From Calditrichaceae bacterium (GTDB lineage Bacteria > Calditrichota > Calditrichia > Calditrichales > JBFXGD01): a stretch of 64,000 nt of DNA. Positions 13,832 to 41,612 of this stretch are shown here, piece after piece. Both the position numbers and the translations under genes were made by a program. Every line of letters starts with the position of its first letter. The first letter of the stretch is position 1. A model generated the notes under the pieces. The model did no database searches. It was not told the origin of the DNA and saw only the letters and a list, made by a program, of their open reading frames with translations. The DNA lies in contig JBFXGD010000001.1 in assembly GCA_050178385.1 (NCBI GenBank), forward strand, positions 5,802 through 69,801, read 5' to 3'.

Positions 13832-14614
13832 ATGATAAAAGAAATAATCCAAAGGATTGGAATTCCGCTTCCTGAGAAGGAGAAATTTCCGGTAGATTTA
13901 AAAAAATTAGAAAAAATACTTGAATATACATTTCAGGACAAAGAATTAATACTTAAAGCTTTAAGGCATCGATCATACCTTAGTTTAACCCATGAAGATA
14001 ATATTGAGTCAAATGAAAGGCTGGAGTTTTTAGGAGATGCCGTTCTCGATCTGATAGTCACGGAACATCTTTATAAAGATTTTAAAGGGCAGAGCGAAGG
14101 AGTATTATCCAAAAAGAAATCCATTCTTGTTTCACGTCAGGTGTTGGGCCATCTCACGGACAAACTTGGTCTCGGTGAGTATCTTCTCATCAATAAGGGA
14201 GAAGAAAAGACCGGAGGAAGAAGAAGGCTCTCCAATCTTGCTAATCTTTTTGAAGCCTTATTGGGTGCTATTTATCTCGACTCCGGTATCAAATCCGCTG
14301 AAAATTTTGTTTACCGGAATCTCCTGGACCAGCGTGATGAATTTCTGAAAACAAAATCCTATTTTAATTATAAATCATCCTTATTGGAATTTGCCCAGGC
14401 CAAAGGCTGGGGATTTCCAAAGTATGAAATTTTGGCTGAAGAAGGTCCTGATCATGAAAAACAATTTATTATTCAGGTAAATGTTAATGATAAATGGTCA
14501 GCAACGGGAACCGGGAGAAGCAAAAAAAATGCCGAACAACGCGCGGCGCAAAATGTTTTGAAAAAGATTGAGGAATCATCAGAAAAAATTTCTAAATATT
14601 TGAAAGACGAATAA
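13832..14614 (+). CDS. rnc: ribonuclease III
   Basis: RNase III signature NERLEFLGDAVL and a C-terminal dsRBD (PKYEI..GPDHEKQF..GRSKKNAEQRAA). Confidence 0.9.
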   Translation: MIKEIIQRIGIPLPEKEKFPVDLKKLEKILEYTFQDKELILKALRHRSYLSLTHEDNIESNERLEFLGDAVLDLIVTEHLYKDFKGQSEGVLSKKKSILVSRQVLGHLTDKLGLGEYLLINKGEEKTGGRRRLSNLANLFEALLGAIYLDSGIKSAENFVYRNLLDQRDEFLKTKSYFNYKSSLLEFAQAKGWGFPKYEILAEEGPDHEKQFIIQVNVNDKWSATGTGRSKKNAEQRAAQNVLKKIEESSEKISKYLKDE

Positions 14615-14644
14615 TATCATAAAAGATAAAGGTGTAATCTGTCA

Positions 14645-15733
14645 ATGAAAATTATTAATGTTGTTGGTGCGCGACCAAATTTCATGAAAATAGCCCCGAT
14701 ACAGCGTGTCATGTCCGGGTATAAAAATATAGAAACAAGGCTTGTGCATACCGGTCAGCATTATGATGAGCGTATGTCTAAATTGTTTTTTGAAGATTTG
14801 CAATTACCTAAACCGGATGTATATTTAAATGTCGGTTCCGGGAGTCATGCTGTGCAGACAGCAAAGGTTATGATGGAATTTGAACAGGTACTCCTGTCGG
14901 AGAAACCGGACCTTGTTGTTGTTGTCGGAGATGTAAATTCAACCGCGGCCTGCAGCATAGTCGCCGCAAAATTAGGCGTGAAAGTCGCGCATGTGGAAGC
15001 CGGACTCAGGTCTTTTGACAGAACAATGCCTGAAGAAATTAATCGTATTCTTACGGATGCCATTTCGGATTTTTTGTTTGTAACCGAGCAAAGCGGTCTT
15101 ATGCATTTAAAGAATGAAGGCATAGATGATTCAAAAGTACACTTTGTCGGGAACGTAATGATTGACTCTCTTGTATATTTTCTTGAGAAAGCCAGACAGT
15201 CAAAAATTATGAGTGATCTGAAATTGGATCAAAAAAACTTTGCTCTTGTTACCCTTCATCGTCCAAGCAATGTTGACAACAAAGATCACTTTTTAAATTT
15301 GCTGCATGCGTTCGAAGTTATCGAAAAAGATATCAATATTGTATTCCCAATCCATCCGCGATCGCGGAAAATGATCGAATCATTCGGATTGCAGGATAAA
15401 ATAGATCGTATGAAGAATCTGATGCTTTTAGAGCCGCTGGGTTATCTCGATTTCATGAATCTTATGCAGAATGCGCGACTGGTTTTGACTGATTCAGGAG
15501 GCATCCAGGAAGAAACGACTTATCTTGGAACCCCGTGCATCACGCTGCGTGAAAATACCGAGCGACCGGTGACAATTGAAGTGGGAACGAATGTGATGGT
15601 TGGGAACGATACCAAGCGTATCATCGATGAGGCGCAAAAAGTGATCTCTGGAAACGGCAAACACGGAAAAATTCCGGATTTATGGGATGGAAAAGCCGCC
15701 GAACGAATAGTTGAAATAATAGCCGGGGAATAA
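14645..15733 (+). CDS. wecB: UDP-N-acetylglucosamine 2-epimerase (non-hydrolysing)
   Basis: VVGARPNFMK, HTGQHYD, VVVVGDVNST, HVEAGLRSFD..MPEEINR and DSGGIQEE are the WecB/MnaA family blocks. Confidence 0.85.
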   Translation: MKIINVVGARPNFMKIAPIQRVMSGYKNIETRLVHTGQHYDERMSKLFFEDLQLPKPDVYLNVGSGSHAVQTAKVMMEFEQVLLSEKPDLVVVVGDVNSTAACSIVAAKLGVKVAHVEAGLRSFDRTMPEEINRILTDAISDFLFVTEQSGLMHLKNEGIDDSKVHFVGNVMIDSLVYFLEKARQSKIMSDLKLDQKNFALVTLHRPSNVDNKDHFLNLLHAFEVIEKDINIVFPIHPRSRKMIESFGLQDKIDRMKNLMLLEPLGYLDFMNLMQNARLVLTDSGGIQEETTYLGTPCITLRENTERPVTIEVGTNVMVGNDTKRIIDEAQKVISGNGKHGKIPDLWDGKAAERIVEIIAGE

Positions 15734-15735
15734 TA

Positions 15736-17007
15736 TTGAAAAAATTTATCTGTTTTCTGTTTATTCTTGTCAACTCGCTAATGGCGCAGGTAAGTATCAA
15801 TCAGGATAATCCGGATCTTGTTGAACGGGAAGGCCAAAAGTATAAAACATCTCTGGAGAAGTTTTATAAAAACAGAACTATTCTGCGTACTGTGACACCA
15901 CAGATCCTGGAAGATGAACTGGAAGCGGATGCTTATCTTGTTGGGCCCGGAGATGAGTTCAGCCTGAATTTTTTTGGTGAGATTAACGAAGAACTAAGAT
16001 TTTCAGTACTCCCTGAGGGCAATGTTGTAATTCCGACTGTCGGCGCGGTAAATATCAACGGTATGGATTTGACAAATGCCAAAAAAACCATTTCCGCGGC
16101 GATCAGGAAATATTATAATGATTCCGATTTCTCGATCAATATTGTCGGCTTGAGAAAATTCAGAGTCTATCTGACGGGTGAAGTAAAAACGCCCGGGACA
16201 TATTTTGTACAGGGATCAGACCGGGTATCCGACGTAATTGAAATTGCGAGTGGTTTAACTGACTGGGCCGATGAGACAGCAATCGAAATACGTCATCTGG
16301 ATAGCACCATTGATACACTGAATATATCAAAATATTACCGTGACGCCGATAAAGATCAGAACCTTTTTTTGCGCGGGGGTGATGTAATCCATATTCCTGC
16401 AATCAATCTGTCGGATCCGTATGTGATAGTGGAGAGCCGGATCGAAAAAATTGTCGGCAGCAAGATTGACGAAAACTCATCCTACACCGAGAAACGAAGC
16501 ACCAGAAAGATTTATCGCCTCATGGATGATGAGACCGTAACTATGTTCCTGCGCAGAATATCCGCTTTTACCGCGGAGATTGATCTTTCCACAATCACGC
16601 TGGTGCGGGACGAGAATAGTACCATTATTAATCTGCTCAACGGATATGAAGAGTATGAAGGGTTTTTGCTTAAAAACAAGGATGTACTGAATATACCCGA
16701 TTTGAACAGAGAAGTCTATGTACAGGGTGAAGTCCGGATCCCGGGAGCTTATGTGTTTAATGTAAATCTCCGGGCAAATGATTATATTGGAAAAGCCGGA
16801 GTCCTTGAAAGAGCAAAGAACAGTGATGAGGTGATTATAATACGCGCCGGAACTAAAGAAGTACTCAAAGGCGGTAATACAATTATTGAAAAAGGCGATA
16901 CGATCATTGTCCCGAGAAAGAGAAGGGAGCTGGTGAGGGATTATGTCTCGATCATAATACCTGTATTGAGCATAGTAATATCAACTATTGCGATTGTTAC
17001 CAGATGA
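15736..17007 (+). CDS. outer-membrane polysaccharide export protein (Wza/OPX family)
   Basis: Signal peptide MKKFICFLFILVNSLMAQ. Poly_export block LVGPGDEFSLNFFGE..GNVVIPTVGAVNINGMDL. Two SLBB-like blocks (YLTGEVKTPGTY, YVQGEVRIPGAY). C-terminal hydrophobic helix. TTG start. Confidence 0.75.
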   Translation: MKKFICFLFILVNSLMAQVSINQDNPDLVEREGQKYKTSLEKFYKNRTILRTVTPQILEDELEADAYLVGPGDEFSLNFFGEINEELRFSVLPEGNVVIPTVGAVNINGMDLTNAKKTISAAIRKYYNDSDFSINIVGLRKFRVYLTGEVKTPGTYFVQGSDRVSDVIEIASGLTDWADETAIEIRHLDSTIDTLNISKYYRDADKDQNLFLRGGDVIHIPAINLSDPYVIVESRIEKIVGSKIDENSSYTEKRSTRKIYRLMDDETVTMFLRRISAFTAEIDLSTITLVRDENSTIINLLNGYEEYEGFLLKNKDVLNIPDLNREVYVQGEVRIPGAYVFNVNLRANDYIGKAGVLERAKNSDEVIIIRAGTKEVLKGGNTIIEKGDTIIVPRKRRELVRDYVSIIIPVLSIVISTIAIVTR

Positions 17008-17057
17008 TCGTGGTTAGTTAATAGAACCCGCCATTAAAATAAATCCGGAAGAGAATA

Positions 17058-18326
17058 ATGACTGAAAACAATCGACAGCCTAAACAAGATGAAGTCAATC
17101 TACTCGATTATTTATCGATCCTGTTGAAATGGCGTAAAATAATAATTTATTCTCTTATCATATTTAGCGTGACCGCTATTTTTTTTAGTCTCATTATTCC
17201 AAAGACATACCGCGCATCGTCAATCATAATGCCATCCACCGATCAGGGAGGAATGATGTCCGGATTCCCCATAAACTTGCCTTCCGGCGGGTTATTGAGC
17301 AGCTTTGGCGGGCTATTCGGGGGAGCATCGGATGAATCCTATACACTGCTCGCGATACTAGACAGCCGCACCATCGCCGAAAATACGATCAAACATTTTG
17401 ATTTAATGAAACGGTATGATAGTGACAACATGGAGCAGGCGATTAAGACATTTAAGGAACAGCTTGATTTCACCATGGAAGAGGAGGGAACCATTGAGAT
17501 CACTTTTGATGTGGAAACCGGATATCTTCATTTTGACAAAGATGAAGAAGAAGCCCGTCAGCTGTCAGCCGAAATTGCTAATTATATCGTAAGTGAATTA
17601 AACCGGATCTTTACGGAATTACAGACTTCCCAGGCAAAATCTTTTCGTGTTTTCATTGAGAAGCGATACGATGAAAGCAAACACGATATAAGTGTCCTGG
17701 AACAGCAGATAAAGGATTTCAGCCAGACTTCGGGTATGATTTCTCTTCCGGATCAAATTTCTGCCGCCATCACCGCCGCGGCTGAGATTGAGGGTGAGAT
17801 TATGTCCAAGGAAATTGAAATCGAAGCTCTAAAGCAGTCTCTAAACCCGAACCATTCCTTTGTCAAAAAATTAAATATTGAGCTGATCGAACTCAGAAAA
17901 AAAATGAAGGAATTAAGGCTTGGCACGGCTAAAAAAGATTCAATGGCCATATTCCCTGTTTTTTCTGAAGCCCCGGAGCTTGGAATTAAATATCTGAGAC
18001 TAAAAAGGGAAGCGGAAGTACAGGAAATTATCTATCAGTTTGTAACTCAGCAATACGAACAAGCCAAACTGCAGGAGGCAAAAAATACACCATCCATTCA
18101 GATTATTGACGCAGCCGTTCCTCCTGTAAAGAAATTTAAACCGATACGTTGGTTAATCGTAGTTGTTTCTGGTTTACTGGGAATATTAATCGGAATCTTT
18201 ATTTCATTTCTAAATGAATATATGAGCCGTTTAAAGGTACATGATCCTGAAAGGTATTTAAGCTTCTCAAGTCTTGTCAAAGAAACCAGATTAGATCTGT
18301 TTGGCAGAAAATCAAACAGGAACTGA
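17058..18326 (+). CDS. polysaccharide chain-length determinant (Wzz/PCP family, no kinase domain)
   Basis: N-terminal Wzz block (VNLLDYLSILLKWRKIII + TM), a long coiled-coil periplasmic region, and a second TM near the C-terminus (RWLIVVVSGLLGILIGIFISFL). No Walker-A tyrosine-kinase domain. Confidence 0.7.
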   Translation: MTENNRQPKQDEVNLLDYLSILLKWRKIIIYSLIIFSVTAIFFSLIIPKTYRASSIIMPSTDQGGMMSGFPINLPSGGLLSSFGGLFGGASDESYTLLAILDSRTIAENTIKHFDLMKRYDSDNMEQAIKTFKEQLDFTMEEEGTIEITFDVETGYLHFDKDEEEARQLSAEIANYIVSELNRIFTELQTSQAKSFRVFIEKRYDESKHDISVLEQQIKDFSQTSGMISLPDQISAAITAAAEIEGEIMSKEIEIEALKQSLNPNHSFVKKLNIELIELRKKMKELRLGTAKKDSMAIFPVFSEAPELGIKYLRLKREAEVQEIIYQFVTQQYEQAKLQEAKNTPSIQIIDAAVPPVKKFKPIRWLIVVVSGLLGILIGIFISFLNEYMSRLKVHDPERYLSFSSLVKETRLDLFGRKSNRN

Positions 18327-18379
18327 GTCAAAGTTTGGCAACAACTCTTTCTGTTTACTCCGCAATGAAATTATATCAG

Positions 18380-18418
18380 ATCCATTCACGGCGAATAAAA
18401 AGATTCCCGTCGATGGAT
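18380..18418 (+). terminator. hairpin in the 267-nt gap after the Wzz-like gene (possible terminator without U-tract)
   Basis: ATCCAT (18380-18385) / ATGGAT (18413-18418), plus an inner ACGG/CCGT stem separated by one mismatch. An A/T-rich tail (TAATTAAAATATATT) follows, not a clean T-run. Confidence 0.3.
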
Positions 18419-18644
18419 TAATTAAAATATATTGGCATTTTTTAATTCATTCTTACTTCCGTCGCGGTAAATTTCCCTTTTTTCTCCGAATTTTAACAGC
18501 ATATCTAATCAATATAAACTTTTTGCATTCAAATTTTGGTAAGAGACACAAAAAGTCCTAAATTTGATAGTTTATTAAATAAATATAAGGCCAATGGTTT
18601 TAATCAAACCGGAAATTGAATTAGAGCGGATTCTGGAGGAGATA

Positions 18645-20156
18645 ATGAAAGCTATCATATTGGCGGCCGGAACAGGAAGCCGGCTGCGACCCCTGACTGA
18701 AAAACTACCAAAATCCATGGTGCGTGTCAACGGGAAACAGATTCTCGCGCACCAGATAGATGCATATCTGAATGCGGGCCTGAAGAAGGAATCAATTTAT
18801 ATCGCGGTTGGCTATAAATCAGAATTTATTGTCGATTTTATCAGTCAGAATTACAAAGGAGTAAATGTGGTTGTCAATCAGGAATATAGCACAACCAATA
18901 ATATGTACTCATTGTATCTTTCCCTGGAAGAGATCGGATTTGACAATAAAAATGGTTTATTTATCAGCAATGGTGACTGTGTCTATTCCGTGCCGGTAAT
19001 AAAGAAATTAATGGATGATCCACGGCCAAATCTTATCGCGGCGGAAAAAGGCGTTCATAATGAAGAATCTATGAAAATCACTCTGCAAAACGGAAAAATA
19101 AATGATATATCAAAGCAGATAACAGACCAGGTGGCTTACGGGGTCTCGATTGATCTTTATAAATTGGGTTCGCAGGCGGTCCGAAACCTGACCAAAATTA
19201 TCGAAGATTATATTTTTAATCAAAAACAGCGAAATTTATGGACGGAAGTCGCTTTAAAAAATTTGTTAGGCAAAGAAGACTTCGAACCGATGGATATCAG
19301 GGGAGAGAAATGGGTTGAGATTGACAACATGGACGATTTGACACTCGCAGACCGGCTGTTTAGTGATTTCAACCTAAAAAGCAAGAGATGTTTTATTTTC
19401 GATCTGGACGGGACGGTGTATCTTGGAACTGAACCGATCACAGGAACGATTAATTTTATTCGTGATCATATGAGAGACGGAAAAGATATTTATTTCATGA
19501 CAAATAACACATCCAAATTACCGGCGGATTATGTGAAAAGACTGAAGAACTTCGATCTGGAGATTGAGCAGAATATGGTCATTTCTCCAGTCTTCCCGCT
19601 TATAGAACATCTTAAAAATAACGAGTTGAAAAATATCTTTCTTGTTGCTAATTCCGGTTTTTCCAGCTATTTAAAGGCAGCGATCCCGGGGATAAAACTA
19701 ACTGATGAGTCATCTGATTGTCAGGCGATTGTTCTGGCGTATGACACAGAGCTGACCTATGAAAAACTAAGGGCCGCGTCTATTTTGCTGCAAAACAATA
19801 AAAACCTGATTTATCTTGCGACCCATAGTGACATGGTCTGCCCGACAGAGAGCGGCAACATTCCTGATATCGGCACGATGATTACAACAATAGAATTGAC
19901 AACAGGGAAAAAACCCGATCTGATCTTTGGAAAACCGAATCCTGAACTGCTTCAGCATCTCGGCGCGAAGTATAAATCGGATGAGATGGTGCTGGTGGGA
20001 GACAGGTTGTACACCGATAAAAAGCTGGCTGATAACATTGGTTGTGATTTCGTTTGTGTATTAAGCGGCGAGACCCGGAGAGAAGATGTGGAGGATCTCA
20101 GAGATGAAAAATTTCCCGCGCTAATCGTAAAGCATCTTGGTGAAATAATCGATTAA
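18645..20156 (+). CDS. fusion: LicC-type phospho-alcohol cytidylyltransferase (N) + HAD-IIA/NagD-like phosphatase domain (C)
   Basis: N-half: MKAIILAAGTGSRLRPLTEKLPK, NNMYSLYL and WVEIDNMDDL resemble LicC as I remember it. C-half: HAD motifs FIFDLDGTVYLG, MTNNTS, GKPNP and VGDRLYTD. ATG 18645 lies behind GGAGGAG (18635-18641). The track start at 18594 is less likely. Confidence 0.7.
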   Translation: MKAIILAAGTGSRLRPLTEKLPKSMVRVNGKQILAHQIDAYLNAGLKKESIYIAVGYKSEFIVDFISQNYKGVNVVVNQEYSTTNNMYSLYLSLEEIGFDNKNGLFISNGDCVYSVPVIKKLMDDPRPNLIAAEKGVHNEESMKITLQNGKINDISKQITDQVAYGVSIDLYKLGSQAVRNLTKIIEDYIFNQKQRNLWTEVALKNLLGKEDFEPMDIRGEKWVEIDNMDDLTLADRLFSDFNLKSKRCFIFDLDGTVYLGTEPITGTINFIRDHMRDGKDIYFMTNNTSKLPADYVKRLKNFDLEIEQNMVISPVFPLIEHLKNNELKNIFLVANSGFSSYLKAAIPGIKLTDESSDCQAIVLAYDTELTYEKLRAASILLQNNKNLIYLATHSDMVCPTESGNIPDIGTMITTIELTTGKKPDLIFGKPNPELLQHLGAKYKSDEMVLVGDRLYTDKKLADNIGCDFVCVLSGETRREDVEDLRDEKFPALIVKHLGEIID

Positions 20157-20187
20157 TTTTCTGTTACTATGATTTCGGAAAAGCTGG

Positions 20188-21468
20188 ATGACAACCATTG
20201 TGAGTCTCATTAAACAAATATATTTCTTTGGCAAAAAAATAACAGTTTATCTGTTGTTGCTTTTTCCTTACTGGTTTGGGTTTTTTGTCCCCAGAAATAA
20301 AAATCTTTGGGTGTTCGGGGCTTGGTTCGGGGAAAGATATTCGGATAACAGCCGCTATGTTTTTGAATATGTAAATAAAAATGAACCTTCGATAAAAGCG
20401 GTTTGGCTGACCAGAAAAAAAGAAATAATCGATGAAGTGCGCAATCAGTCAAGCTCAGCTGAGATGATACGATCCTGGAAGGGATACTGGATGTCATGCC
20501 GGGCAGGCGCGGTAATCGTTACCTGCGATTTAAGGGATGTGAATAGAATCGGTTTATCAAGGGCAAAAATCATTCAGCTCTGGCACGGAACTCCCTTAAA
20601 AAAAATCGGGTTTGACGATAAAATAACCACGAATCCTGACCGGCCGGTCTTTTACACATTACTTAAAAAAATCTGGTATATTCTTTTTCCATTTATGGAA
20701 GACAGATGGGATATGCTTATTTCTCCGAGTGAATTTGTGAGTCAGCGATTATCGTCCGCGTTTAATTTGGATTTATCCAAAATTCCGGTCACCGGATATC
20801 CCCGCGGAGATGTAATTCTTAACCATACGTCCGATCCCCATGTTGAGATCTTCAGAAGTGTAAGGTTTGAGTACAATGTCAAAAACATAATATTCTTTTT
20901 ACCAACCCTTAGGGAAAGGACAACAGGTAAAATAGATCTGTTTCATGATTTAGATTTTGATGCTTTTAATAAGTTTTTAATTGAAAATGATGCCTGGTTT
21001 TTTGTGAAAATGCATTTCTACCATCTCAAAGCTAATAAACCCGGCCTCATGGAAAGAGATCATTCCAGAATCTGGTTTCTTACTGAGCGTGAACTGCCTG
21101 ATATTAATTACGCGCTTCCTGATACGGATATATTGATTACAGATTATTCAAGCGTATTCTTTGATTTTGTGCTTCTCAACCGGCCTGTAATCTTTACTCC
21201 GTTTGATATAAATGATTATCTGGCGAAGGACAGGGAATTTTATGACGATTATGATCGGTTAATCCCGGGGCCTCAGTGCAGAAACTGGGATGAAGTCATG
21301 GAAAAATTATCAGACTTAATAAAGGGAAAAGATAATTATATAGAAAAAAGACTTCATGCGCAGAAACTGTTTAATACTTTTATTGATACGGATAATTCAA
21401 GAAGAGTTGTAAGAGAGATTAATTACATTTTAGGCAAAAACCGGGTTTCAAGGGAACAGCATGATTGA
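20188..21468 (+). CDS. CDP-glycerol/alcohol-phosphate glycerophosphotransferase family protein (TagB/TagF-like)
   Basis: WVFGAWFGERYSDNSRYVFEY, LWHGTPLKKIG and ITDYSSVFFDF are the Glyphos_transf family blocks. Confidence 0.8.
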   Translation: MTTIVSLIKQIYFFGKKITVYLLLLFPYWFGFFVPRNKNLWVFGAWFGERYSDNSRYVFEYVNKNEPSIKAVWLTRKKEIIDEVRNQSSSAEMIRSWKGYWMSCRAGAVIVTCDLRDVNRIGLSRAKIIQLWHGTPLKKIGFDDKITTNPDRPVFYTLLKKIWYILFPFMEDRWDMLISPSEFVSQRLSSAFNLDLSKIPVTGYPRGDVILNHTSDPHVEIFRSVRFEYNVKNIIFFLPTLRERTTGKIDLFHDLDFDAFNKFLIENDAWFFVKMHFYHLKANKPGLMERDHSRIWFLTERELPDINYALPDTDILITDYSSVFFDFVLLNRPVIFTPFDINDYLAKDREFYDDYDRLIPGPQCRNWDEVMEKLSDLIKGKDNYIEKRLHAQKLFNTFIDTDNSRRVVREINYILGKNRVSREQHD

Positions 21469-21565
21469 GTTCTCCTGGCTTTCAAAAATATTGTTTATTA
21501 TTAGTTTTTATTGTGTTCAAAGCGAAAATATCTTTAAATAAAAATGATATTTGGAATTATAAAAG

Positions 21566-22897
21566 ATGACCAAATTTACAAAAATTAGTCTTGGTTTTAT
21601 CATTTTCGCACTACCGCTTCAAATAATTTCCATCTATGTCGGATTCAGTATAATCCTTGTTCGTGTTCTTTTTCTGTCCAGTTTCTTTGTCGCTGTTTTT
21701 CTGATGCTCATAAGAGGGGAGTTGAACATTCCCAAAACTTACATTGATTTAAATATTTTACTTCTTATAATCGCAAATTTTATTATCACATTGTTCGCGA
21801 TAGACGTTCTGCTCAGTCTTAAAGATGCTCTATTGCAGATGTATATAATATTCTTTTTTTACTATATCTACTGGTTGATGAATACAGAAAAATCACTGGA
21901 ATTCGCGGTAAACGCCTATATTTATACTGCAATCATTCTATCTCTGTACGGTGCATTCCAGCAGATTGGTTTTCTATTGGGGTGGGACACAAGAATTCCT
22001 TTCCTGGATTATTTTTCGTACAATGAAGCTCTCAAAGATCCCGCCTCGAAAGATTGGGCTATGGAAGAAATAAGTAGTTTTTTCATTCGTATAAGGGGAA
22101 CATTTTTTGATACAAATACTTTTGCGGGTTATATAGTTAGCGCATTCGGCTTGGCAATCACAAAACTTATCTACTCATATAAGGAAAGAAAAGCTGGAAG
22201 TAAGTTCAAATATTGGTTAATAATTTTCATCTTCTTAATAACGATTCTTTTGACTATGTCGCGTTCAGCCTTGGTGGGTCTCTTCCTATTGTTTATGGTG
22301 ATTCTTTTTTATTATCATAAAGAATTGTTTGGCAGGTTTTTATGGTTGAGGATAATTGTGCCTTTCGTTGTTGTTGCAATATTTGGCATCCTGCTCATAC
22401 CTGATCTTTTAGATCTGATCATTGGGGTTGTTACATCGTTTAGCATGGACAATAAAAACCCTCTTCGGACGAAATCGACAATGCTTCACCTGAAAATAGC
22501 CTTACAGGGAATTGAAATGTTCATTGAGAATCCGATTACCGGTGTCGGCTTAAATAATTTTCGTATAAGCTATGCACACAGTAATCACCTTTGGTACACA
22601 GGATTCACAAATAAAAACATGATGGCTCATAGCGTGTTTTTGTCCTTCTTTTCAGAAGGTGGAATTATAGGTGCAATAGCCAATTATTCAATTATCGGTA
22701 CAATAATATTAAAATCACATAGCCGGATTAAATCGATTTTATCTTCATATAAGAAATCTCAAATGGTAGGCATTTTTGCAGCTTATATTGGTATTCTGGG
22801 ATCGAATATATTTTATCAATATTATTTAAATGAGTTCGTTTGGTTCTTGATTGCGGCAAATGTGGCGGCATTCTATGTATTAAAACCCGATGATTAA
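21566..22897 (+). CDS. O-antigen polymerase/ligase family membrane protein (Wzy-like)
   Basis: 443 aa and very hydrophobic, with at least 10 predicted TM segments. It has the Wzy_C-like block LLTMSRSALVGLFLLF and a large loop before the last TMs. This is the most AT-rich gene in the locus. Confidence 0.6.
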   Translation: MTKFTKISLGFIIFALPLQIISIYVGFSIILVRVLFLSSFFVAVFLMLIRGELNIPKTYIDLNILLLIIANFIITLFAIDVLLSLKDALLQMYIIFFFYYIYWLMNTEKSLEFAVNAYIYTAIILSLYGAFQQIGFLLGWDTRIPFLDYFSYNEALKDPASKDWAMEEISSFFIRIRGTFFDTNTFAGYIVSAFGLAITKLIYSYKERKAGSKFKYWLIIFIFLITILLTMSRSALVGLFLLFMVILFYYHKELFGRFLWLRIIVPFVVVAIFGILLIPDLLDLIIGVVTSFSMDNKNPLRTKSTMLHLKIALQGIEMFIENPITGVGLNNFRISYAHSNHLWYTGFTNKNMMAHSVFLSFFSEGGIIGAIANYSIIGTIILKSHSRIKSILSSYKKSQMVGIFAAYIGILGSNIFYQYYLNEFVWFLIAANVAAFYVLKPDD

Positions 22898-23065
22898 ATT
22901 CATCATAATAATGTATGCTTTAATGTTTTGGAACAGAATAATATTATATCATTCCGATCGTGTGTAAGGCTGATGATGTATAGATTGGCAATAAATGGGA
23001 ATTGAAAATTATGATAATCATTTTTGAGTTACGATCAACAAAAGAAAATATATCAGTTTTCCATA

Positions 23066-24016
23066 ATGAAAAAAAAGATGAGAGATATTAAAGTTAAAAA
23101 GGCTCCAAAAGTCGCCATTGTTATTTTAAATTACATGCGCGCAAATGATACTATCGAATGTATGGAATCGATTCTTAATATTGATTATAAGAACTATGAG
23201 ATTATACTGGTGGATAATCATTCCCGGGATGATTCGGTCGCAAAATTAAAAATGCGTTTTCCGGAATCAGATATTTTTTCAACGGGTGAAAATCTTGGGT
23301 ACACCGGTGGTATAAACTTCGGAGTCAGGAAGGCGCAATCTTTAAAGCCCGAATACATTCTGCTGCTCAATAATGACACCATTGTAGAAAAGACATTCCT
23401 GACAGAACTGGTTCATTCGATGGAGACTTTTCCCGAAGCCGCCGCCATGGGCGGACTGATTCTTGCAGAGCATGACAGACGGACCGTGTGGTATGCGGGT
23501 GGCACGATGATTCCGTGGAGAGGACTAGCGGTTCATAATCACAAAGGGAAAAATATCGAAGATCTTCAATTAAAATCAATCCGGCCGGTCAGCTTTATCA
23601 CAGGATGTATGATCATGTTCAGAGCGGAAAAACTGGATGAAGTTGGCCTTCAGGATGAACGTTTCTTCATGTATCTTGACGATATAGAATACTCAGCAAG
23701 GATGAAAAATAAAGGATTACAGCTTCTTTTCAATCCAAAAGCAATAATTTATCACAAAGTTTTGAACGAGACCGAGAATCCGTTCAAATTGTATTATTCA
23801 GTAAGAAACCGGCTTTTATTGATATCTGTCTCGTGGAAAGGGCTGACACGCTGGAGCGCGGTAATATACTTTCTGACGGTCATATTAGCAAAACTCATAT
23901 GGTGGCGCTTTACAAACAGAAGTTTTTACTCGGCGGGACGTAAAGGGCTGGCCGATTATTTTAATAAAAATTTTTACAAAGGCAACGGCTTCAATTTTCT
24001 GGCATCGGATTTTTAG
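23066..24016 (+). CDS. glycosyltransferase family 2 (COG1216 rhamnosyltransferase-like)
   Basis: VAIVILNYMRANDT, LVDNHSRDDS, LLLNNDTIV and FFMYLDDIEYSARM. ATG 23066 is preferred over the track's TTG 23024. Confidence 0.8.
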   Translation: MKKKMRDIKVKKAPKVAIVILNYMRANDTIECMESILNIDYKNYEIILVDNHSRDDSVAKLKMRFPESDIFSTGENLGYTGGINFGVRKAQSLKPEYILLLNNDTIVEKTFLTELVHSMETFPEAAAMGGLILAEHDRRTVWYAGGTMIPWRGLAVHNHKGKNIEDLQLKSIRPVSFITGCMIMFRAEKLDEVGLQDERFFMYLDDIEYSARMKNKGLQLLFNPKAIIYHKVLNETENPFKLYYSVRNRLLLISVSWKGLTRWSAVIYFLTVILAKLIWWRFTNRSFYSAGRKGLADYFNKNFYKGNGFNFLASDF

Positions 24017-24019
24017 AAT

Positions 24020-24952
24020 ATGACAAAGATGAAACTCACAGATAAAGAAATCGGATCTGTCGCGGCAATTATCCTTAACTATAACGGGTATGAGGATACG
24101 GAAGCCTGCATAAATTCAATCCAGAAGATTTACGGTGATCGGCTGGCAATATATTTGATTGATAACGCGTCAACGGATGGGAGCGGTTTAAAGCTCAAAA
24201 AGAAATTTAGCGCAGTCTCATTTTATGAGCTCGAAGAGAATCGCGGCTATGCCGCCGGGAATAATCTTGGTATTCAAAAAGCGCTATCTGACGGATTTAA
24301 AAATTTTCTTGTACTAAATAATGATATTATTCTTACAGAGGATGTACTGACTCCGTTTCTCGATGAATTTCACTCCGATCCGCAGACAGGAATTGTCACT
24401 TGTAAGGTGTTTTTTACCGGGCCCGAAAAAATAATATACTCAGCCGGCGGCCGCTTTAATAGGTGGATATGCACCGGGGAGAATTTAAAAATTGGTAAAG
24501 CGGATGACGGAATATCTGAAAGGAAAATCATTGATTTTTTTCCGGGAGCTATTTTTCTCATTAAAAAGGAAGTTGTGGATAATGTCGGATTTATGAAAGA
24601 ACACTTTTTCATGTATTATGAAGATCTGGAATATTCTTTTCGTGTGAACCAAATGTACAAAATGGTTTATTTTTCAGATGTAAGTGTTCTCCATGGTTGC
24701 GGCGGTGGAAAAAAAGGCATGGCTTACTCTGCTCTTTATCTATATTATCACACACGTAACCGATTATGGTTATTCAGAGAACGGTCTTTTTTCTATTTCA
24801 TTTATGTTGTATTATTTACGTTTGCGAATTGCATCTGGAAAACCACGGTTGTTTTCAGGGCAGAAAGCGCTAAAAAAGACCGGATGCATAAATTAAAAAA
24901 ACTCTGGAGCGGTTATTTCCATGGGTTATTTGCTCCAACGGTAAAAAAATGA
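24020..24952 (+). CDS. glycosyltransferase family 2 (COG1216-like), paralog of the previous gene
   Basis: AAIILNYNGYEDT, LIDNASTDGS, LVLNNDIIL and FFMYYEDLEYSFRV. Confidence 0.8.
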   Translation: MTKMKLTDKEIGSVAAIILNYNGYEDTEACINSIQKIYGDRLAIYLIDNASTDGSGLKLKKKFSAVSFYELEENRGYAAGNNLGIQKALSDGFKNFLVLNNDIILTEDVLTPFLDEFHSDPQTGIVTCKVFFTGPEKIIYSAGGRFNRWICTGENLKIGKADDGISERKIIDFFPGAIFLIKKEVVDNVGFMKEHFFMYYEDLEYSFRVNQMYKMVYFSDVSVLHGCGGGKKGMAYSALYLYYHTRNRLWLFRERSFFYFIYVVLFTFANCIWKTTVVFRAESAKKDRMHKLKKLWSGYFHGLFAPTVKK

Positions 24953-26169
24953 AAAACGATCAAATAAAAAAACAGCCAGGAATTCGGAAACACCATACAC
25001 CAATGAAAATATTGTTTTTAACATCACGTCTGCCATTTCCTCCAATCGGGGGCGATAAATTGCGGACTTTTAATTTCCTAAGGTATCTAAAGCAAAAATA
25101 TGAAGTAACTCTTATTTCCTTTATAGAAAATGAGACGGAATTGCAAAATATTTCTGAATATCGTAAATACTACGATAAGCTGATCAGTGTCACATTACCA
25201 AAAGTAAATTCGTATAAAAATTCATTTATCGGGTTATTTTCATCAAAACCTCTGCAGGTGCATTATTACAATTCGGATAAAATGCGGAAAGTAATGGAAA
25301 ATGAGCTTAAAAATGGCTATGATGCCGTTTTTTGTCATCTGATCCGTATGGCTCAGTATCTCCCGGAAAGCAAAAACATCAGGAAAGTGGTGGATTTTAC
25401 AGATGCCATTTCATTGAATTATGAGCGGAGTAAACAATTCCGGAAAGGATTGTTCTCCATTATTAATTATGTGGAAGCAAAGCGCGTTTACCATTACGAA
25501 CAATCAGTGATAAAAAAATCGTACAGATCAATATTTATATCAGACATAGATGCGGATTTCCTCAGAAATGATCAAAATACAGACAAGATAAATATTGTAG
25601 CAAACGGGGTTGATCTGGATATGTTTCAGTTCTACGCAGGCGCTTACAAGCCTAATCAGATTTGTTTTGTCGGTAATATGAGAACATTTCCCAATACGGA
25701 CGCGGTAAACTATTTTGTAAAAGAAGTGTTTCCAATACTAAAAAGGGTAAATAAAGAGCTGAAATTTTATATCGTCGGCAATGAGCCTCCGGCTGAAATA
25801 AGGAATTTGCATAATGCTAAAGATATTATTGTCACAGGATTTGTGGAATCAGTAATTCCCCATATCACCAATTCCGCGGTTTTAGTCGCGCCGATGAGAG
25901 TAGGCGCGGGAATACAGAACAAGATATTGGAAGCAATGGCCCTGGGCACGCCGGTGGTGACAACCACAATCGGGGCGGAAGGGCTGAATAATGATATGGC
26001 GCTTATCGGGGACACTCCCGAAGAGCTGTCGGATAAGATATTATCCATCTTAAATGACAGAGAGTTACGGAGGGATAAAGCCCGGGCAGCAAGGGAATAT
26101 ATTGAGAAAAATTTCAGATGGGAAAAAGTATTTAAAGATCTTGAAGAAAATTTTGTTTATTCTGATTGA
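24949..26169 (+). CDS. glycosyltransferase family 4 (GT-B, Glycos_transf_1)
   Basis: MKILFLTSRLPFPPIGGDKLR N-terminal block and the C-terminal GT-B EX7E region (APMRVGAGIQNKILEAMALGTPVV). An ATGA overlap links it to the upstream GT2. ATG 25003 is an alternative start. Confidence 0.8.
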   Translation: MKNDQIKKQPGIRKHHTPMKILFLTSRLPFPPIGGDKLRTFNFLRYLKQKYEVTLISFIENETELQNISEYRKYYDKLISVTLPKVNSYKNSFIGLFSSKPLQVHYYNSDKMRKVMENELKNGYDAVFCHLIRMAQYLPESKNIRKVVDFTDAISLNYERSKQFRKGLFSIINYVEAKRVYHYEQSVIKKSYRSIFISDIDADFLRNDQNTDKINIVANGVDLDMFQFYAGAYKPNQICFVGNMRTFPNTDAVNYFVKEVFPILKRVNKELKFYIVGNEPPAEIRNLHNAKDIIVTGFVESVIPHITNSAVLVAPMRVGAGIQNKILEAMALGTPVVTTTIGAEGLNNDMALIGDTPEELSDKILSILNDRELRRDKARAAREYIEKNFRWEKVFKDLEENFVYSD

Positions 26170-26215
26170 AACCGAAATTAAAAATAGTAAACATTAATGG
26201 AATAATTGCTGGAGA

Positions 26216-27910
26216 ATGGATTTGAAAAAACTATTTATTGTGCTGGTTCTGCTGATAAATCTCTCGGTTTATGCCGGTAATCCGGTAAGCGTGCCCATTA
26301 ATCATCCAATTTATGATTTTTTTGATCGTATGGAAACGATGGGGTATCTAAATCGCCTTTTGGACGGAATTCGGCCATACAGCCGTGGCCGGGCGGCGGA
26401 TATACTGCTGCAGCTTAATGAGAAACGCGACGAATTAACTTCAATCGATAGACGAAGACTGGATGATTATTTACTGGATTTCAGATTTGAAATAGATCGT
26501 TCTCAAAAATATTCGGAAGCGCCTGATGGCAAAAACTGGTATTCGGTGTTTTCCGGATGGGGAACTTTCAAGAAAGACTTTAACCGGTTCTTTAAACAGA
26601 ATCACCCCGAGGAAGAAAATCACGTATTTCTGTGGGAATCGGGAGGAAGTAACTTCTATTTTGATTATCAGCAAAATTTTACATATGAACAGAGATCGGA
26701 TGATGTGACGAGGGATGCCAATTGGCAGACCTACCAGGTGCGGGGGTTGATTGATGATAATTTCGGGTATGCCGTGGAGGTTAGTCTTTATGCCTTGCGC
26801 GGTGACGAGTCCTATGTCGGGGAACATCCAATACTCAAAGGCGCGTGGAGCAAGCTTCATGAAAATGAAACCAGATATGCGGACAGAACCGGCGGGGAAC
26901 TGGCCTGGCATAACAGGTATTTTGATTTTACCTTTGCTCAGCAGGAAATTGAATGGGGGCCGGGTGAATCAGGTAAATTAACACTTTCCAATAACCCGGA
27001 GCACTATCCCTACGTGAGTATTTCGAAGGATTGGGGATGGGGGAAGTTTATCGCTTTGCACGGGAAATTACAATCGTTTCCCGAGGACACAAGTACTAGC
27101 GGGGAACCGCTGTATCCGGATAAGTGGCTGGCCGCTCATCGTCTTGAGTTTGCTCCCTGGAAAAGTTTGACTATTGGTATCAATGAAAATTTTATTTACG
27201 GCTACCGATACGCGGACTGGTCCTATCTGGTGCCTTTTAACTTTTACAGAGCAACACAGCATAATTTGCGCGACCGCGATAATGCCACAATTTCCATTGA
27301 TTTCGAATGGGTTGCGCGCTCGGGAAGCAAACTCTACGGTACGTTATTTCTGGATGAGTTCAAACGAAGTAAATTATTCACGGACTGGTATGGAAATAAG
27401 CACGCCTTTTTAATCGGTTTGCATCAGACTGATCCGTTCGGGATCGAAAACTTATCTGTGCGGTTGGAATACACGGCCATTATGCCATGGGTATATACGC
27501 ATAAGTATCCCATTAACAGTTACACAACTGATTATCAATCTCTTGGTCACTGGGCCGGTCCTAATTCTGAAGTGTATTATGCCCATGTGTCCAAAGACTG
27601 GCACCAGCGTTTAACAACCGGATTTATATTTCAGCAGTATAAACATGGCGATAATTATGAGAATGAAAATATCGGCGGTGATATTCTGCTGGGGCACAAT
27701 GATTTGTTGGGTGAACAGGAAAGCGCGAGGGAAACCCGGGATTTTCTTGAAGGTAATTTGACCACAGAACAAAAGTATGAAGCATATCTAAAATATGAAG
27801 TTTTTAATGATCTGTTTTTAACATTCGTCTATGATCATTTTGATATAGAAAGCGGCGGAACCAAAACCAAATTAGATGAATTTCATTTTGGGTTTGAATT
27901 ACGATATTAG
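26216..27910 (+). CDS. outer-membrane beta-barrel protein, probably capsule-assembly Wzi family
   Basis: Signal peptide, then an N-terminal helical block (HPIYDFFDRMETMGYLNRLL..IRPYSRGRAADILL) as I remember for Wzi-family proteins. Aromatic-rich alternating beta-strand pattern, and a C-terminus FGFELRY ending in an aromatic residue. At 564 aa it is longer than classical Wzi. Confidence 0.5.
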   Translation: MDLKKLFIVLVLLINLSVYAGNPVSVPINHPIYDFFDRMETMGYLNRLLDGIRPYSRGRAADILLQLNEKRDELTSIDRRRLDDYLLDFRFEIDRSQKYSEAPDGKNWYSVFSGWGTFKKDFNRFFKQNHPEEENHVFLWESGGSNFYFDYQQNFTYEQRSDDVTRDANWQTYQVRGLIDDNFGYAVEVSLYALRGDESYVGEHPILKGAWSKLHENETRYADRTGGELAWHNRYFDFTFAQQEIEWGPGESGKLTLSNNPEHYPYVSISKDWGWGKFIALHGKLQSFPEDTSTSGEPLYPDKWLAAHRLEFAPWKSLTIGINENFIYGYRYADWSYLVPFNFYRATQHNLRDRDNATISIDFEWVARSGSKLYGTLFLDEFKRSKLFTDWYGNKHAFLIGLHQTDPFGIENLSVRLEYTAIMPWVYTHKYPINSYTTDYQSLGHWAGPNSEVYYAHVSKDWHQRLTTGFIFQQYKHGDNYENENIGGDILLGHNDLLGEQESARETRDFLEGNLTTEQKYEAYLKYEVFNDLFLTFVYDHFDIESGGTKTKLDEFHFGFELRY

Positions 27911-27978
27911 GCAATAATGTTTCATCGATTATCAAAAAAGCGTAATTTCATGTGTACCGGGATAATATGTAAGAATAT

Positions 27979-30411: not shown

Positions 30412-30417
30412 GATATC

Positions 30418-32505
30418 ATGTCAAGTCAGAAAACAGTAATCAGTATAATTATCGTTAACTACAATGTGCGGGATTTTCTTGAGCAGGCGTTGATTTCAGT
30501 AAAACGGGCGCTTGAGAACATTACATCAGAGATTATTGTTGTCGATAATGCATCCATCGACGGATCTGTACAGATGCTCCAGAATCGATTCCCTGATGTA
30601 AAAATTATCGAAAACGATAAAAATTTGGGCTTTTCCGCCGCTAACAATCTCGCGTTGAAAGATGCCCATGGGGAATACATTGTATTATTGAATCCGGATA
30701 CGTTGGTTCAGGAAGACACCTTTAAAAAGCTGATTCAATTTTTTGAACAAAATCCTGATGCTTCGGCCGCCACTTGTAAAATTTTGAATCCTGACGGGAC
30801 TTTCTCTATAGACTGCCGCCATAGTATTCCCACACCAATGACGGCATTCTGGAAACTGATAGGATTTAATCGTCTTTTTCCAAAAAGTAAAATATTCGGC
30901 CGTTATAACCTGACCTGGCTTGATGAAAATCAAATCTACCAGGTTGAGGCAATATCAGGTTCATTCATGATGATAAAGAGCGGGGTTGTTCAGAAAGTCG
31001 GGTTGCTGGATGACCGGTTTTTTATGTATTGCGAAGACATTGATTACTGTCACCGGATAAATCAGTCCGGCGGAAAAATCTATTATGTTCCGACATCTCA
31101 GCTAATCCACTATAAAGGAGAAAGTACAAAGAAAAACAATCTGGATTATGTCGTCACGTTTAACAAATCGCTCTATTTGTTTTACAAAAAACACTATCAG
31201 CAAAAATATATCTATCCCTTTAAATGGTTAATTCTTCTTGGAGTCATCTTGAGGGGGATGATGATCTTTATCAGAAATTTTGCCGCCGCTTTTTATCCAT
31301 TTATGCTGGATTTGCTGATAATGAACGGAACGTTGTTTTTAAGTTTCTATCTCCGTTATGAAATTAGAGGAGATTTTACTCTCCATGATTTTTTCAGTGA
31401 CTATATTATTATTAACTTAATAACATCGGCCGCCTACTTCATCTCATCCCTGTTTTTCGACAGTATGGACAGAGACAGATATTCTTTGATTAAAGTGTTT
31501 AAGGCCAACCTGCTCACCTATACGTTTGTCTCAGCATTGACATTTTTTTTCAAACAGTTTGCCTTCTCGAGGCTTGTAGTGCTTTTTACGGCATTTATCA
31601 GCACATCGTTGATGCTTATCTGGAGGATCGGTCTTAGATATTACGGCAGAAAGTATTCGGAAGTTCTCAGAAAAGATTTGTTCGCAAAACGGGCGCTGAT
31701 AGTAGGATTGGATGATGATACGCAAAACCTGCTTATAAAATTAAATAAACGCGTCGATTCTTCAATTGAAATTGTCGGATTGATTTCTCCTGACCGGAAA
31801 GATATCGGCAAAAAAATCGCGGGGTTTCCAATCGTCAGCTCCATACAACAACTACCTGAATTTTTAAGACTTAACAAGATTAACCTGGTCATTTTCTCCA
31901 CACATAATATTTCATATAAATCCATTTTAACCGCCATGGCAAATGTTGAAAACTCTCATATCGAGTTTAAAATGGTACCCGGACATCTGGAATTTATGGT
32001 AGGTAAATCAAATATTGAGCGGCTTGACAATATGCCGCTGGTGGATATAGAATACGCGTATGGTAAACTTTTCAACCGCTTTGTAAAAAGATCTGCCGAT
32101 ATTTTTACATCGTTTATAATCCTGATCTTTCTTCTGCCTGTCGCTTTGCTTTTCCTGCCGTTTAAAATTGGAAAAATAGGCAGAAAACAGGTCCATCAAG
32201 GTAAGAATAATATCAAAACCATTTTGTGGGACCCCCATAAAGGATTTTTCCGCTTTATTTTAAATCTGATAAATATATTATCCGGAAAAATATCACTGGT
32301 GGGCGCGCCGATGGAGAAGGATGGGAAACGGGAGCAGCAGTTTGATTATAAACCCGGGCTGACGGGGATCATTCAAATCAATAAAAACAAGATTACGGAT
32401 GATCAGATATTTGAGAATTTTGAACTGCATTATCTCAAAAATCAGAATTTTTTGCTCGATGTCGAAATTATATACAGGGCGCTATTTTTAAGAAAAGAAA
32501 GATGA
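30418..32505 (+). CDS. fusion: GT2 glycosyltransferase (N) + WbaP-like 4-5TM/Rossmann/vestigial sugar-transferase module (C)
   Basis: aa 1-250: ISIIIVNYN, VVDNASIDGS, LLNPDTLV and FFMYCEDIDYCHR. aa 260-695: TM segments, ALIVGLDDDTQNLLIKL..IVGLISPD, FKMVPGHLEFMVG and KRSADIFTSFIILIFLLPVALL. The tail is shortened, with LVGAPME in place of LVGPRPE, followed by KPGLTGIIQI. Confidence 0.7.
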   Translation: MSSQKTVISIIIVNYNVRDFLEQALISVKRALENITSEIIVVDNASIDGSVQMLQNRFPDVKIIENDKNLGFSAANNLALKDAHGEYIVLLNPDTLVQEDTFKKLIQFFEQNPDASAATCKILNPDGTFSIDCRHSIPTPMTAFWKLIGFNRLFPKSKIFGRYNLTWLDENQIYQVEAISGSFMMIKSGVVQKVGLLDDRFFMYCEDIDYCHRINQSGGKIYYVPTSQLIHYKGESTKKNNLDYVVTFNKSLYLFYKKHYQQKYIYPFKWLILLGVILRGMMIFIRNFAAAFYPFMLDLLIMNGTLFLSFYLRYEIRGDFTLHDFFSDYIIINLITSAAYFISSLFFDSMDRDRYSLIKVFKANLLTYTFVSALTFFFKQFAFSRLVVLFTAFISTSLMLIWRIGLRYYGRKYSEVLRKDLFAKRALIVGLDDDTQNLLIKLNKRVDSSIEIVGLISPDRKDIGKKIAGFPIVSSIQQLPEFLRLNKINLVIFSTHNISYKSILTAMANVENSHIEFKMVPGHLEFMVGKSNIERLDNMPLVDIEYAYGKLFNRFVKRSADIFTSFIILIFLLPVALLFLPFKIGKIGRKQVHQGKNNIKTILWDPHKGFFRFILNLINILSGKISLVGAPMEKDGKREQQFDYKPGLTGIIQINKNKITDDQIFENFELHYLKNQNFLLDVEIIYRALFLRKER

Positions 32506-39755: not shown

Positions 39756-39837
39756 AACTACTCCTTTGTTCTGGGCGTAAATATAGAGAAAACCCGGATT
39801 ATATTCAATAATTGATGGGTGGCGAACAAAGATTCTT

Positions 39838-41610: not shown

Positions 41611-41612
41611 AA

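Follow-up and report, generated by a model that had tools for sequence, protein, structure and literature searches.

Why would an enzyme that consumes a phosphomonoester be joined to a phosphatase-like domain? The question is raised by a gene in a 64,000-nucleotide (nt) stretch of contig JBFXGD010000001.1 from a Calditrichaceae bacterium (hereafter the window; positions are counted from its first letter). The gene encodes a LicC-type cytidylyltransferase fused to a HAD-IIA domain, and is followed by a gene of the TagF family. The answer proposed here, to which we give about an even chance, is that the fusion is a bifunctional enzyme making an activated glycerol-phosphate donor: the HAD domain would yield glycerol-2-phosphate, the N-terminal domain (N-domain) would convert it into CDP-2-glycerol, and the TagF-type enzyme would transfer the glycerol phosphate. 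The gene and its parts, given in amino acids (aa) where they are parts of the protein, are the following.

18635–18640, + strand: Shine-Dalgarno-like GGAGGA, 4 nt before the ATG at 18645 (sequence reading)
18645–20156 including the stop codon, + strand: fusion gene, 503 aa, cytidylyltransferase plus HAD-IIA (open reading frame translation, domain searches)
18645–19364, + strand: N-domain, aa 1–240, LicC/PntC/IPCT-type phospho-alcohol cytidylyltransferase (Pfam, family profile, Foldseek)
19365–19385, + strand: linker, aa 241–247, DFNLKSK, about 7–8 residues (conserved in an alignment of 24 homologs)
19386–20153, + strand: C-terminal domain (C-domain), aa 248–503, HAD-IIA phosphoryl-transfer domain (Pfam, TIGR01460, PDB, Foldseek)

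A single open reading frame without internal stops spans 18645–20156 and contains every motif quoted in the preliminary description of this DNA, which had been made from the letters alone. An alternative in-frame ATG upstream, at 18594, would give a protein of 520 aa (17 residues more). The start was placed at 18645 because of the spacing of GGAGGA, a strong ribosome-binding site, and because homologs begin at the equivalent of MKAIILAAG in an alignment of 24 fusion proteins, which are 42–88% identical to the window protein. In NCBI, the window protein has a 100% identical counterpart from a Calditrichaceae metagenome-assembled genome (MAG), named only 'HAD-IIA family hydrolase'. An AlphaFold2 model calculated on the same alignment showed high confidence for the two domains as one unit (pLDDT 94.1, pTM 0.89), the high pTM suggesting that the two domains are packed in a fixed arrangement; at the linker, F239 is invariant and K247 nearly so. 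None of the catalytic residues of either domain varies among the 24 homologs and, judged from this conservation, both domains look catalytically competent.

The N-domain carries the motifs LAAGxGSRL (here LAAGTGSRL), PK (K23), TNNMYSL, NGDC, ESMK, SIDLYK, WTE and WVEID, and is matched at aa 2–125 by the Pfam families NTP_transferase (E 1.1e-13) and NTP_transf_3 (E 8.4e-10). Residues G9, G11, R13 and K23, involved in nucleotide binding, are invariant in the 24 fusions and likewise in a set of 16 fused and stand-alone members; N85, N109, D111, K144, D170, Y172, W199, E201, W223 and E225 are further invariant positions in the 24 homologs. The resemblance to LicC along the whole length of the N-half, claimed initially, was not recovered with the single sequence, which gave a significant match at aa 1–98 only (E 2.4e-18), but it was recovered with a family profile of the 16 members. 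In the PDB the best match of this profile was LicC (E 1.1e-32, positions 1–236 aligned to LicC residues 26–252), and PntC (E 4.5e-30) and IPCT (E 2.3e-22) were also matched over their full length. Sugar-1-phosphate enzymes (those for mannose-, glucose- and MurNAc-1-P) were aligned mostly at positions 1 to ~115 only, with E 1.7e-17 or weaker. Foldseek superposed the N-half on LicC with a template modelling (TM) score of 0.85 over 242 columns. On account of the full-length profile matches and this structural likeness, the N-half is assigned to the phospho-alcohol cytidylyltransferases, grouping with LicC, PntC and IPCT and not with sugar-1-phosphate nucleotidyltransferases. Fold and nucleotide-binding motifs are common to the N-domain and LicC (PDB 1jyk); overall identity is 27%, however, and at the substrate side the N-domain has ESMK, SIDxY and WTE instead of the LicC residues. 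The NCBIfam model NF041135 (IPCT/DIPPS) scored 73 bits on the protein against a cut-off of 580, and no Pfam match to CTP_transf_like (PF01467), the TagD fold, was found in it.

The C-domain contains the HAD motifs I (DLDGT, with nucleophile D253 at codon 19401–19403), II (TNNTS), III (GKP, K430) and IV (GDRLYTD), together with the cap motif ATHSDMVCPTESGNIPDIG, whose signature ATHxDxxCPxExGxxPDxG is invariant in the 24 homologs. Proper alignment upheld the four motifs noticed at first, D253, D255, T257, N287/N288/S290, K430, D453 and D458 being invariant in the same set, and the catalytic residues are invariant also among stand-alone relatives of the C-half. Pfam detected Hydrolase_6 at aa 250–345 (E 1.7e-19) and Hydrolase_like at aa 428–500 (E 1.8e-14), and the HAD-IIA model TIGR01460 of NCBIfam scored 107.5 bits, above its cut-off of 100.15. 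The closest PDB structure is TM1742 of T. maritima (1vjr; E 1e-47, 38% identity, TM 0.88), which has the cap motif ATHxDxxCPxxxGxxPDxG in common with the C-half and for whose function no account was found in the literature searched. Superposition of the modelled domain on TM1742, NagD and PLP phosphatase gave target-normalised TM values of 0.78–0.90. The four HAD motifs and a C2a cap are common to the window domain and the HAD-IIA phosphatases (TM1742, NagD, Rv1692 and the mammalian glycerol-3-phosphate/phosphoglycolate phosphatases). Those proteins, by contrast, are stand-alone hydrolases, whereas the window domain is fused to a consumer of a phosphomonoester, and for this reason hydrolysis of that ester is unlikely to be its role.

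Fusion of a LicC-like cytidylyltransferase to the enzyme of a neighbouring step has precedents in PntC-AEPT (6pd1/6pd2) and IPCT/DIPPS (4mnd), although their partners are an aminotransferase and a CDP-alcohol phosphatidyltransferase, respectively, and their substrates differ. A search of 5.8 billion proteins gave 1468 protein clusters, and nearly all of the best 120 were two-domain proteins of ~500 aa. In a scan that took one genome for each species, 287 relatives were found; 80 were kept, about 41 of them distinct fusion loci. One continuous frame for both halves is present in at least 41 independent assemblies, including the complete genome of Brucepastera parasyntrophica RmG11, and in most of the 1468 clusters; this recurrence in many assemblies and clusters excludes an assembly artefact, so that the fusion is real. 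Bacterial carriers belong to Calditrichaceae, Zixibacteria, Arcobacteraceae, Helicobacteraceae, Campylobacteraceae, Alphaproteobacteria, Acetomicrobium, Saccharibacteria, Moranbacteria, Gastranaerophilales/Melainabacteria, Dehalococcoidales, Cytophagia and Endomicrobiellum; B. parasyntrophica and two Paenibacillus species are cultured carriers, and Methanobacterium, Methanomicrobia and other Euryarchaeota are archaeal ones. An exhaustive HMMER search with the N-half returned 164 clusters at the 50% identity level with E 1e-30 or better. Among the best 150 of these were ~60 fusions of ~500 aa and ~85 proteins shorter than 350 aa, the latter mostly stand-alone enzymes of 230–260 aa with the motifs of the fusions. 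No fusion was found by tblastn in a plasmid collection, which held separate HAD-IIA or LicC-family genes only; one match, on a Limosilactobacillus oris plasmid, was discarded as an unrelated housekeeping HAD. No description of the fusion was found in the searchable literature, and in databases it bears a generic name only. The architecture is widespread and unstudied, but its chemistry is probably one that pneumococci are known to perform.

Which product the N-domain makes was approached through the genes around the fusion, beginning with the TagF-type neighbour and the locus in which both lie.

20188–21468, + strand: TagF/WchX-type CDP-alcohol phosphotransferase, Glyphos_transf, 426 aa (Pfam)
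14645–32505, + strand: polysaccharide locus (Pfam)

As first described, the TagF-family gene starts 31 nt downstream of the fusion (gap 20157–20187). Its product matches Glyphos_transf (PF04464) with E 7.4e-72, residues 32–411 covering profile positions 7–365 of 367, and is presumed to be the user of the fusion's product. With this TagF-like protein as tblastn query, a Glyphos_transf homolog was detected at most 6 kb from the fusion in 24 of the 41 loci, often adjacent or overlapping. In 7 further loci, from Alphaproteobacteria, Helicobacteraceae and Campylobacteraceae, the gene next to the fusion codes for a protein of ~360–490 aa that has no Pfam match and is a remote Glyphos_transf member by hhalign (96%, E 4e-9), bringing the TagF-type partner to 31 of 41 distinct fusion loci within 6 kb. 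The 427-aa neighbour from Alphaproteobacteria and Campylobacterota, devoid of Pfam matches, had been considered as a different kind of partner and was recognized as remotely TagF-type by profile comparison. The survey of neighbours of N-half plus HAD-IIA fusions thus showed a conserved TagF-type partner, consistent with use of a CDP-alcohol. In the window, the locus runs from a UDP-GlcNAc 2-epimerase through a Wza-like exporter and a Wzz/GNVR protein to the fusion and the TagF-like gene, and continues with Wzy_C, two GT2, one GT4, Wzi and two large Bac_transf-containing proteins; the gene order is repeated in two other Calditrichaceae MAGs. LicA, LicB and LicD were not found in the window. The initial statement that TagD is absent stands for the 64-kb window, as searched by tblastn with one TagD-like query; its scope is the window and not the whole genome.

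Related loci provide a link to glycerol. In one of them (L091), whose fusion is 57% identical to that of the window, the genes for Wzx, the fusion, a GpsA-like protein and Glyphos_transf overlap in this order, and in one Methanobacterium and two Gastranaerophilales loci (L008, L037, L044) the fusion is likewise followed by a GpsA-like gene. The GpsA-like partners keep LKN and DKSRNRTLG, matching the substrate site of solved glycerol-3-phosphate dehydrogenases, and because of this are probably true dihydroxyacetone phosphate (DHAP) reductases; their presence suggests sn-glycerol-3-phosphate as the starting compound. A split form of the module was reached by searching from an abundant stand-alone relative of the N-half (P0254). 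In two polysaccharide loci of gut-type bacteria (L088 and L089), it consists of a cytidylyltransferase (240 aa, 43–44% identical to the N-half), a HAD-IIA protein (266 aa) and an Fe-ADH_2 dehydrogenase, in this order, followed in L089 by LicD and in L088 by an unannotated gene, a weak Glyphos_transf and Wzx. An Alphaproteobacteria locus (L004, 10806–11237) carries a TagD-like CTP_transf_like gene two genes downstream of the fusion, as does L016, so that two different cytidylyltransferase systems coexist in one polysaccharide locus. The TagD-like gene besides the fusion points to a product of the fusion that is distinct from ordinary CDP-glycerol.

The closest stand-alone HADs are 45–51% identical to the C-half, have the cap signature in common with it, and lie outside polysaccharide loci. 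In Propionivibrio, Accumulibacter, Dentiradicibacter and related Betaproteobacteria they form part of a cluster comprising a GlpD-like gene (FAD-dependent glycerol-3-phosphate dehydrogenase, DAO plus DAO_C), DctP, DctQ, DctM, the HAD and a Na/Pi cotransporter-PhoU gene. One such cluster occupies 1224–8469 of L060, and its order is repeated in L057, L059, L062, L076, L081 and L083, the HADs being 48–49% identical to the C-half. This cluster may be an uptake and utilisation system for an isomer of glycerol phosphate. In Desulfovibrio relatives a stand-alone HAD is found near a GlpD/GlpA-like gene and a TRAP transporter, and in one Bacteroidales locus it adjoins an Fe-ADH_2 gene.

The need of the N-domain for a phosphomonoester, a partner family that works with CDP-glycerol or CDP-ribitol, and the glycerol-phosphate accessory enzymes together make it very probable that the alcohol is glycerol and the product a CDP-glycerol species. 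Plain hydrolysis of glycerol phosphate would undo the pathway, which makes it an unlikely role for the HAD domain; supply of the glycerol-2-phosphate isomer is the simplest productive one. In the mechanism proposed, the HAD-IIA domain would form a phospho-aspartyl intermediate on D253 and yield glycerol-2-phosphate, for which it would shift the phosphate group of sn-glycerol-3-phosphate to O-2 or else phosphorylate glycerol. The LicC-type domain would convert glycerol-2-phosphate and CTP into CDP-2-glycerol and pyrophosphate, and the TagF/WchX-type enzyme would pass glycerol phosphate on to a sugar in the Wzy-dependent polysaccharide that locus 14645–32505 produces, with release of CMP. The added glycerol-2-phosphate would be a substituent on the repeat unit of this Wza/Wzz/Wzy/Wzi-type polymer. 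The suggestion made at the outset, of a CDP-activated alcohol for the TagF-like neighbour with a substrate prepared by the HAD domain, agrees with comparative gene context, from which we infer the chemistry of the HAD step. For the 2-isomer and the direction and chemistry of that step, taken together, the odds appear evenly balanced.

A pathway with such parts has been described in Streptococcus pneumoniae, in which wchX encodes a glycerol phosphotransferase, gtp1 a dehydrogenase, gtp2 a nucleotidyl transferase and gtp3 a phosphotransferase (PMC3493582, PMC5581491, PMC1391919). The likeness of the fusion loci to Gtp1-3/WchX of serotypes 23F, 23B and 15 consists of matching parts set in a Wzy-type capsule locus: the LicC-type domain, HAD-IIA and Glyphos_transf of the window, with the GpsA-like or Fe-ADH_2 dehydrogenase of related loci, correspond to the four Gtp/WchX parts, and the domain order of the fusion is the gene order gtp2, gtp3. 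The pneumococcal gtp products reportedly make CDP-2-glycerol, by a route that, according to Wang et al. in 2010, runs from dihydroxyacetone to glycerol, glycerol-2-phosphate and CDP-2-glycerol. On this comparison, the window protein would represent pneumococcal Gtp2 (cytidylyltransferase) and Gtp3 (glycerol-2-phosphotransferase) in fused form. The two systems differ in that cytidylyltransferase and phosphoryl-transfer protein are one polypeptide in the window, which has no dehydrogenase, and in that the dehydrogenase of related loci resembles a true DHAP reductase, whereas Gtp1 reportedly converts dihydroxyacetone into glycerol. None of the 30 stand-alone N-half relatives that were looked up is a Streptococcus entry. 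With respect to LicC, the context differs as well, the window having a TagF-type gene and the related loci glycerol-phosphate enzymes. TagD/GCT probably has a similar overall job, provision of a CDP-glycerol donor for a TagF-type transferase, but belongs to an unrelated fold family (CTP_transf_like, HxGH motif). Two further candidates were rejected as counterparts: CpgD, a phosphoglycerate cytidylyltransferase, has no HAD domain, and the C. jejuni HS:1 locus uses an ordinary TagD homolog.

A number of observations weigh against the proposed CDP-2-glycerol route. The likely counterpart of the window module, the pneumococcal CDP-2-glycerol pathway, is likened to it by gene names and parts, and Gtp3 is assumed to be a HAD-IIA protein. 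No GpsA-like or Fe-ADH_2-like dehydrogenase gene is present in the window. The functional evidence for the fusion is gene context throughout, from which substrate and product are deduced. All HAD-IIA enzymes characterised are, to our knowledge, hydrolases, and we know of no HAD-IIA mutase; relatives in the PDB act on glycerol-3-phosphate, phosphoglycolate, PLP, nucleotides or pyrophosphate. Between the HAD of the split modules and the C-half, identity is only 31–32%, and the cap motifs differ. Methanobacterium sp. MB1 (L087, 7297–10254) has a cytidylyltransferase, a GpsA-like gene and Glyphos_transf without any HAD, so that the HAD step is not required for every such module; its cytidylyltransferase is only 30% identical to the N-half and has no TNNMYSL, WTE or WxEID motifs. 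In locus L042 (6001–7509), an MB1-type cytidylyltransferase, 44% identical to that of L087, is followed by one stop, an in-frame HAD of the window type and then a TagF-like gene, representing either two adjacent genes or a fusion recently broken or forming; this pairing indicates that the HAD is not tied to a single cytidylyltransferase type. Fusions of four Euryarchaeota loci (L029, L030, L031 and L035, 6001–7497) combine a HAD 51% identical to the C-half with a degenerate cytidylyltransferase half, in which LAANDNTQL stands for LAAGxGSRL and SSGKC for NGDC, and WTE and WxEID are missing; by its sequence, this N-domain has probably lost its activity and been retained as a scaffold. No TagF-type gene was found within 6 kb of these four. 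Given the L042 pairing and the Euryarchaeota fusions with a dead N-half and no TagF-type gene, the HAD may have a function of its own.

The MB1 arrangement also touches on archaeal envelopes. Archaeal lipids are built on glycerol-1-phosphate, and a GpsA-type glycerol-3-phosphate dehydrogenase was found in many methanogens (Methanoculleus, Methanobacterium and Thermoplasmata); the arrangement of MB1 suggests that teichoic-acid-like glycerol-phosphate polymers occur in archaeal envelopes.

The main rival explanation, which we regard as possible but doubtful, is that ordinary CDP-glycerol is made from sn-glycerol-3-phosphate by a non-TagD route and that the HAD is an accessory hydrolase, either clearing pyrophosphate or CMP, products inhibitory to the two transferases, or controlling the level of glycerol-3-phosphate. 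The MB1 module, complete without a HAD, speaks for it, as does the resemblance of the GpsA-like partners to true DHAP reductases, by which glycerol-3-phosphate would be the input. HAD-IIA structures include glycerol-3-phosphate phosphatases (4i9f, 7po7), the pyrophosphatase LHPP (2x4d) and NagD (2c4n), a nucleotide monophosphatase. In addition, TagF-type reactions in vitro are improved by a phosphatase that removes CMP (PMC11924219). However, a glycerol-3-phosphate phosphatase fused to a consumer of glycerol-3-phosphate would be futile, and pyrophosphatase and CMP kinase are already present in cells. The closest stand-alone HADs accompany GlpD and transporters, not nucleotide metabolism; the fusion and the TagD-like gene in one Alphaproteobacteria locus would be redundant if both made ordinary CDP-glycerol; and the recurring split trio of cytidylyltransferase, HAD-IIA and dehydrogenase argues for a HAD that acts within the pathway.

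The same gene contexts bear on the nature of the alcohol. Phosphocholine, phosphoethanolamine, phosphoglycerate, ribitol phosphate or inositol phosphate could take the place of glycerol phosphate, with the HAD acting on the matching precursor. This is improbable, despite the fact that LicC, a phosphocholine enzyme, is the best structural and profile match, that NCBI and JGI label orthologs 'phosphocholine cytidylyltransferase family protein' or 'choline kinase', and that a LicD-family gene follows one split module (L089). The top NCBIfam match of the HAD half, far below the cut-off, is a 2-phosphoglycolate phosphatase family, and the LicC/IPCT-like enzyme CpgD activates phosphoglycerate (PMC12275187). 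Nevertheless, the conserved partner of the fusion is Glyphos_transf, its partner dehydrogenases belong to the glycerol-3-phosphate dehydrogenase and Fe-ADH_2 types, and neither choline kinase nor ribulose-5-phosphate reductase nor inositol-phosphate synthase was seen next to the sampled fusions. CDP-glycerol or CDP-ribitol serves characterised Glyphos_transf members as donor. The substrate-side motifs differ from those of LicC, and the gene context argues against choline as the substrate. The HAD domain could also trim one phosphate from a bis-phosphorylated precursor, as raised in the preliminary description, or from such a product, by an action resembling that of GmhB in heptose activation or of phosphatidylglycerophosphate phosphatase. 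HAD phosphatases do trim phosphates in other nucleotide-sugar and lipid pathways, and the catalytic motifs are intact here, but no kinase able to make a bis-phosphate was seen in the sampled loci and we know of no plausible bis-phosphorylated glycerol metabolite, so this explanation is very improbable. Finally, an assembly or frameshift error joining two genes has a negligible probability: the source is a MAG and split versions exist elsewhere, yet the same frame is present in the 41 or more assemblies, complete genomes included, and in nearly all of the best 120 of the 1468 clusters, and the linker is conserved and the two-domain model confident.

Some features of the locus and its surroundings deserve mention in their own right. 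Most genes of the locus are tightly packed, but an AT-rich gap of 318 nt (18327–18644) separates the Wzz-like gene from the fusion; consensus scans of this gap revealed no convincing promoter or terminator, and no terminator-like site was seen between the fusion and the TagF-like gene. Over 14400–23100, promoter and terminator counts were no higher than in shuffled sequence and thus set no operon boundaries. In a related Calditrichaceae locus (L001, 12936–15458), an extra protein of 840 aa with Por_Secre_tail, a type IX secretion signal, is encoded after the TagF-like gene and before Wzy; the corresponding positions of the window (21469–21565) lack it. Homologs of Wzy, Wza, Wzz and Wzi are present, and no Wzx-type flippase (Polysacc_synt) was found in 14645–32505 or in the other Pfam-scanned open reading frames of the window. 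The 810-aa protein encoded at 27979–30411 combines an N-terminal Glycos_transf_4 domain (WecA/MraY type) with CoA_binding_3 and a C-terminal Bac_transf, that is, two families of initiating phosphoglycosyl-transferases, and the 695-aa protein at 30418–32505 contains GT2, CoA_binding_3 and the C-terminal part only of Bac_transf. Outside the locus, three paralogous GAF plus SpoIIE (PP2C phosphatase) proteins of 590–693 aa are encoded on one strand at 37839–44633 (− strand), and a GGDEF response regulator at 36032–37675 adjoins this trio.

If the HAD-IIA domain moves phosphate from O-3 to O-2 of glycerol, a question raised by the pairing with DHAP reductases, its chemistry would be new to the subfamily. 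A broader conjecture, speculative and rather unlikely at present, would make this HAD-IIA clade a hitherto undescribed type of glycerol-phosphate phosphomutase or transphosphorylase, which would turn sn-glycerol-3-phosphate into glycerol-2-phosphate and back by way of a phospho-aspartate and would serve biosynthesis in one direction and catabolism in the other. Fused to or beside LicC-type enzymes, such a mutase would serve the formation of CDP-2-glycerol for surface polymers in many bacterial phyla and archaea; as a stand-alone HAD next to GlpD and a TRAP transporter, it would let glycerol-2-phosphate, once imported, enter glycolysis with no need of a kinase.

Were the proposed CDP-2-glycerol route true, the label 'HAD-IIA family hydrolase', carried through well over 1000 protein clusters, would stand for the enzyme that makes the donor with which capsules, exopolysaccharides and the envelope polymers of archaea are decorated with glycerol phosphate. 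The lineages concerned, among them Calditrichota, Zixibacteria, CPR (candidate phyla radiation) bacteria, Melainabacteria, Campylobacterota and methanogens, have hardly been touched by experimental glycobiology. The protein would also offer a one-protein route to CDP-2-glycerol, useful where vaccine antigens that bear glycerol phosphate, such as those of pneumococcal serotypes 23F and 15, are to be made by enzymatic synthesis, and would make glycerol-phosphate substituents predictable from genomes.

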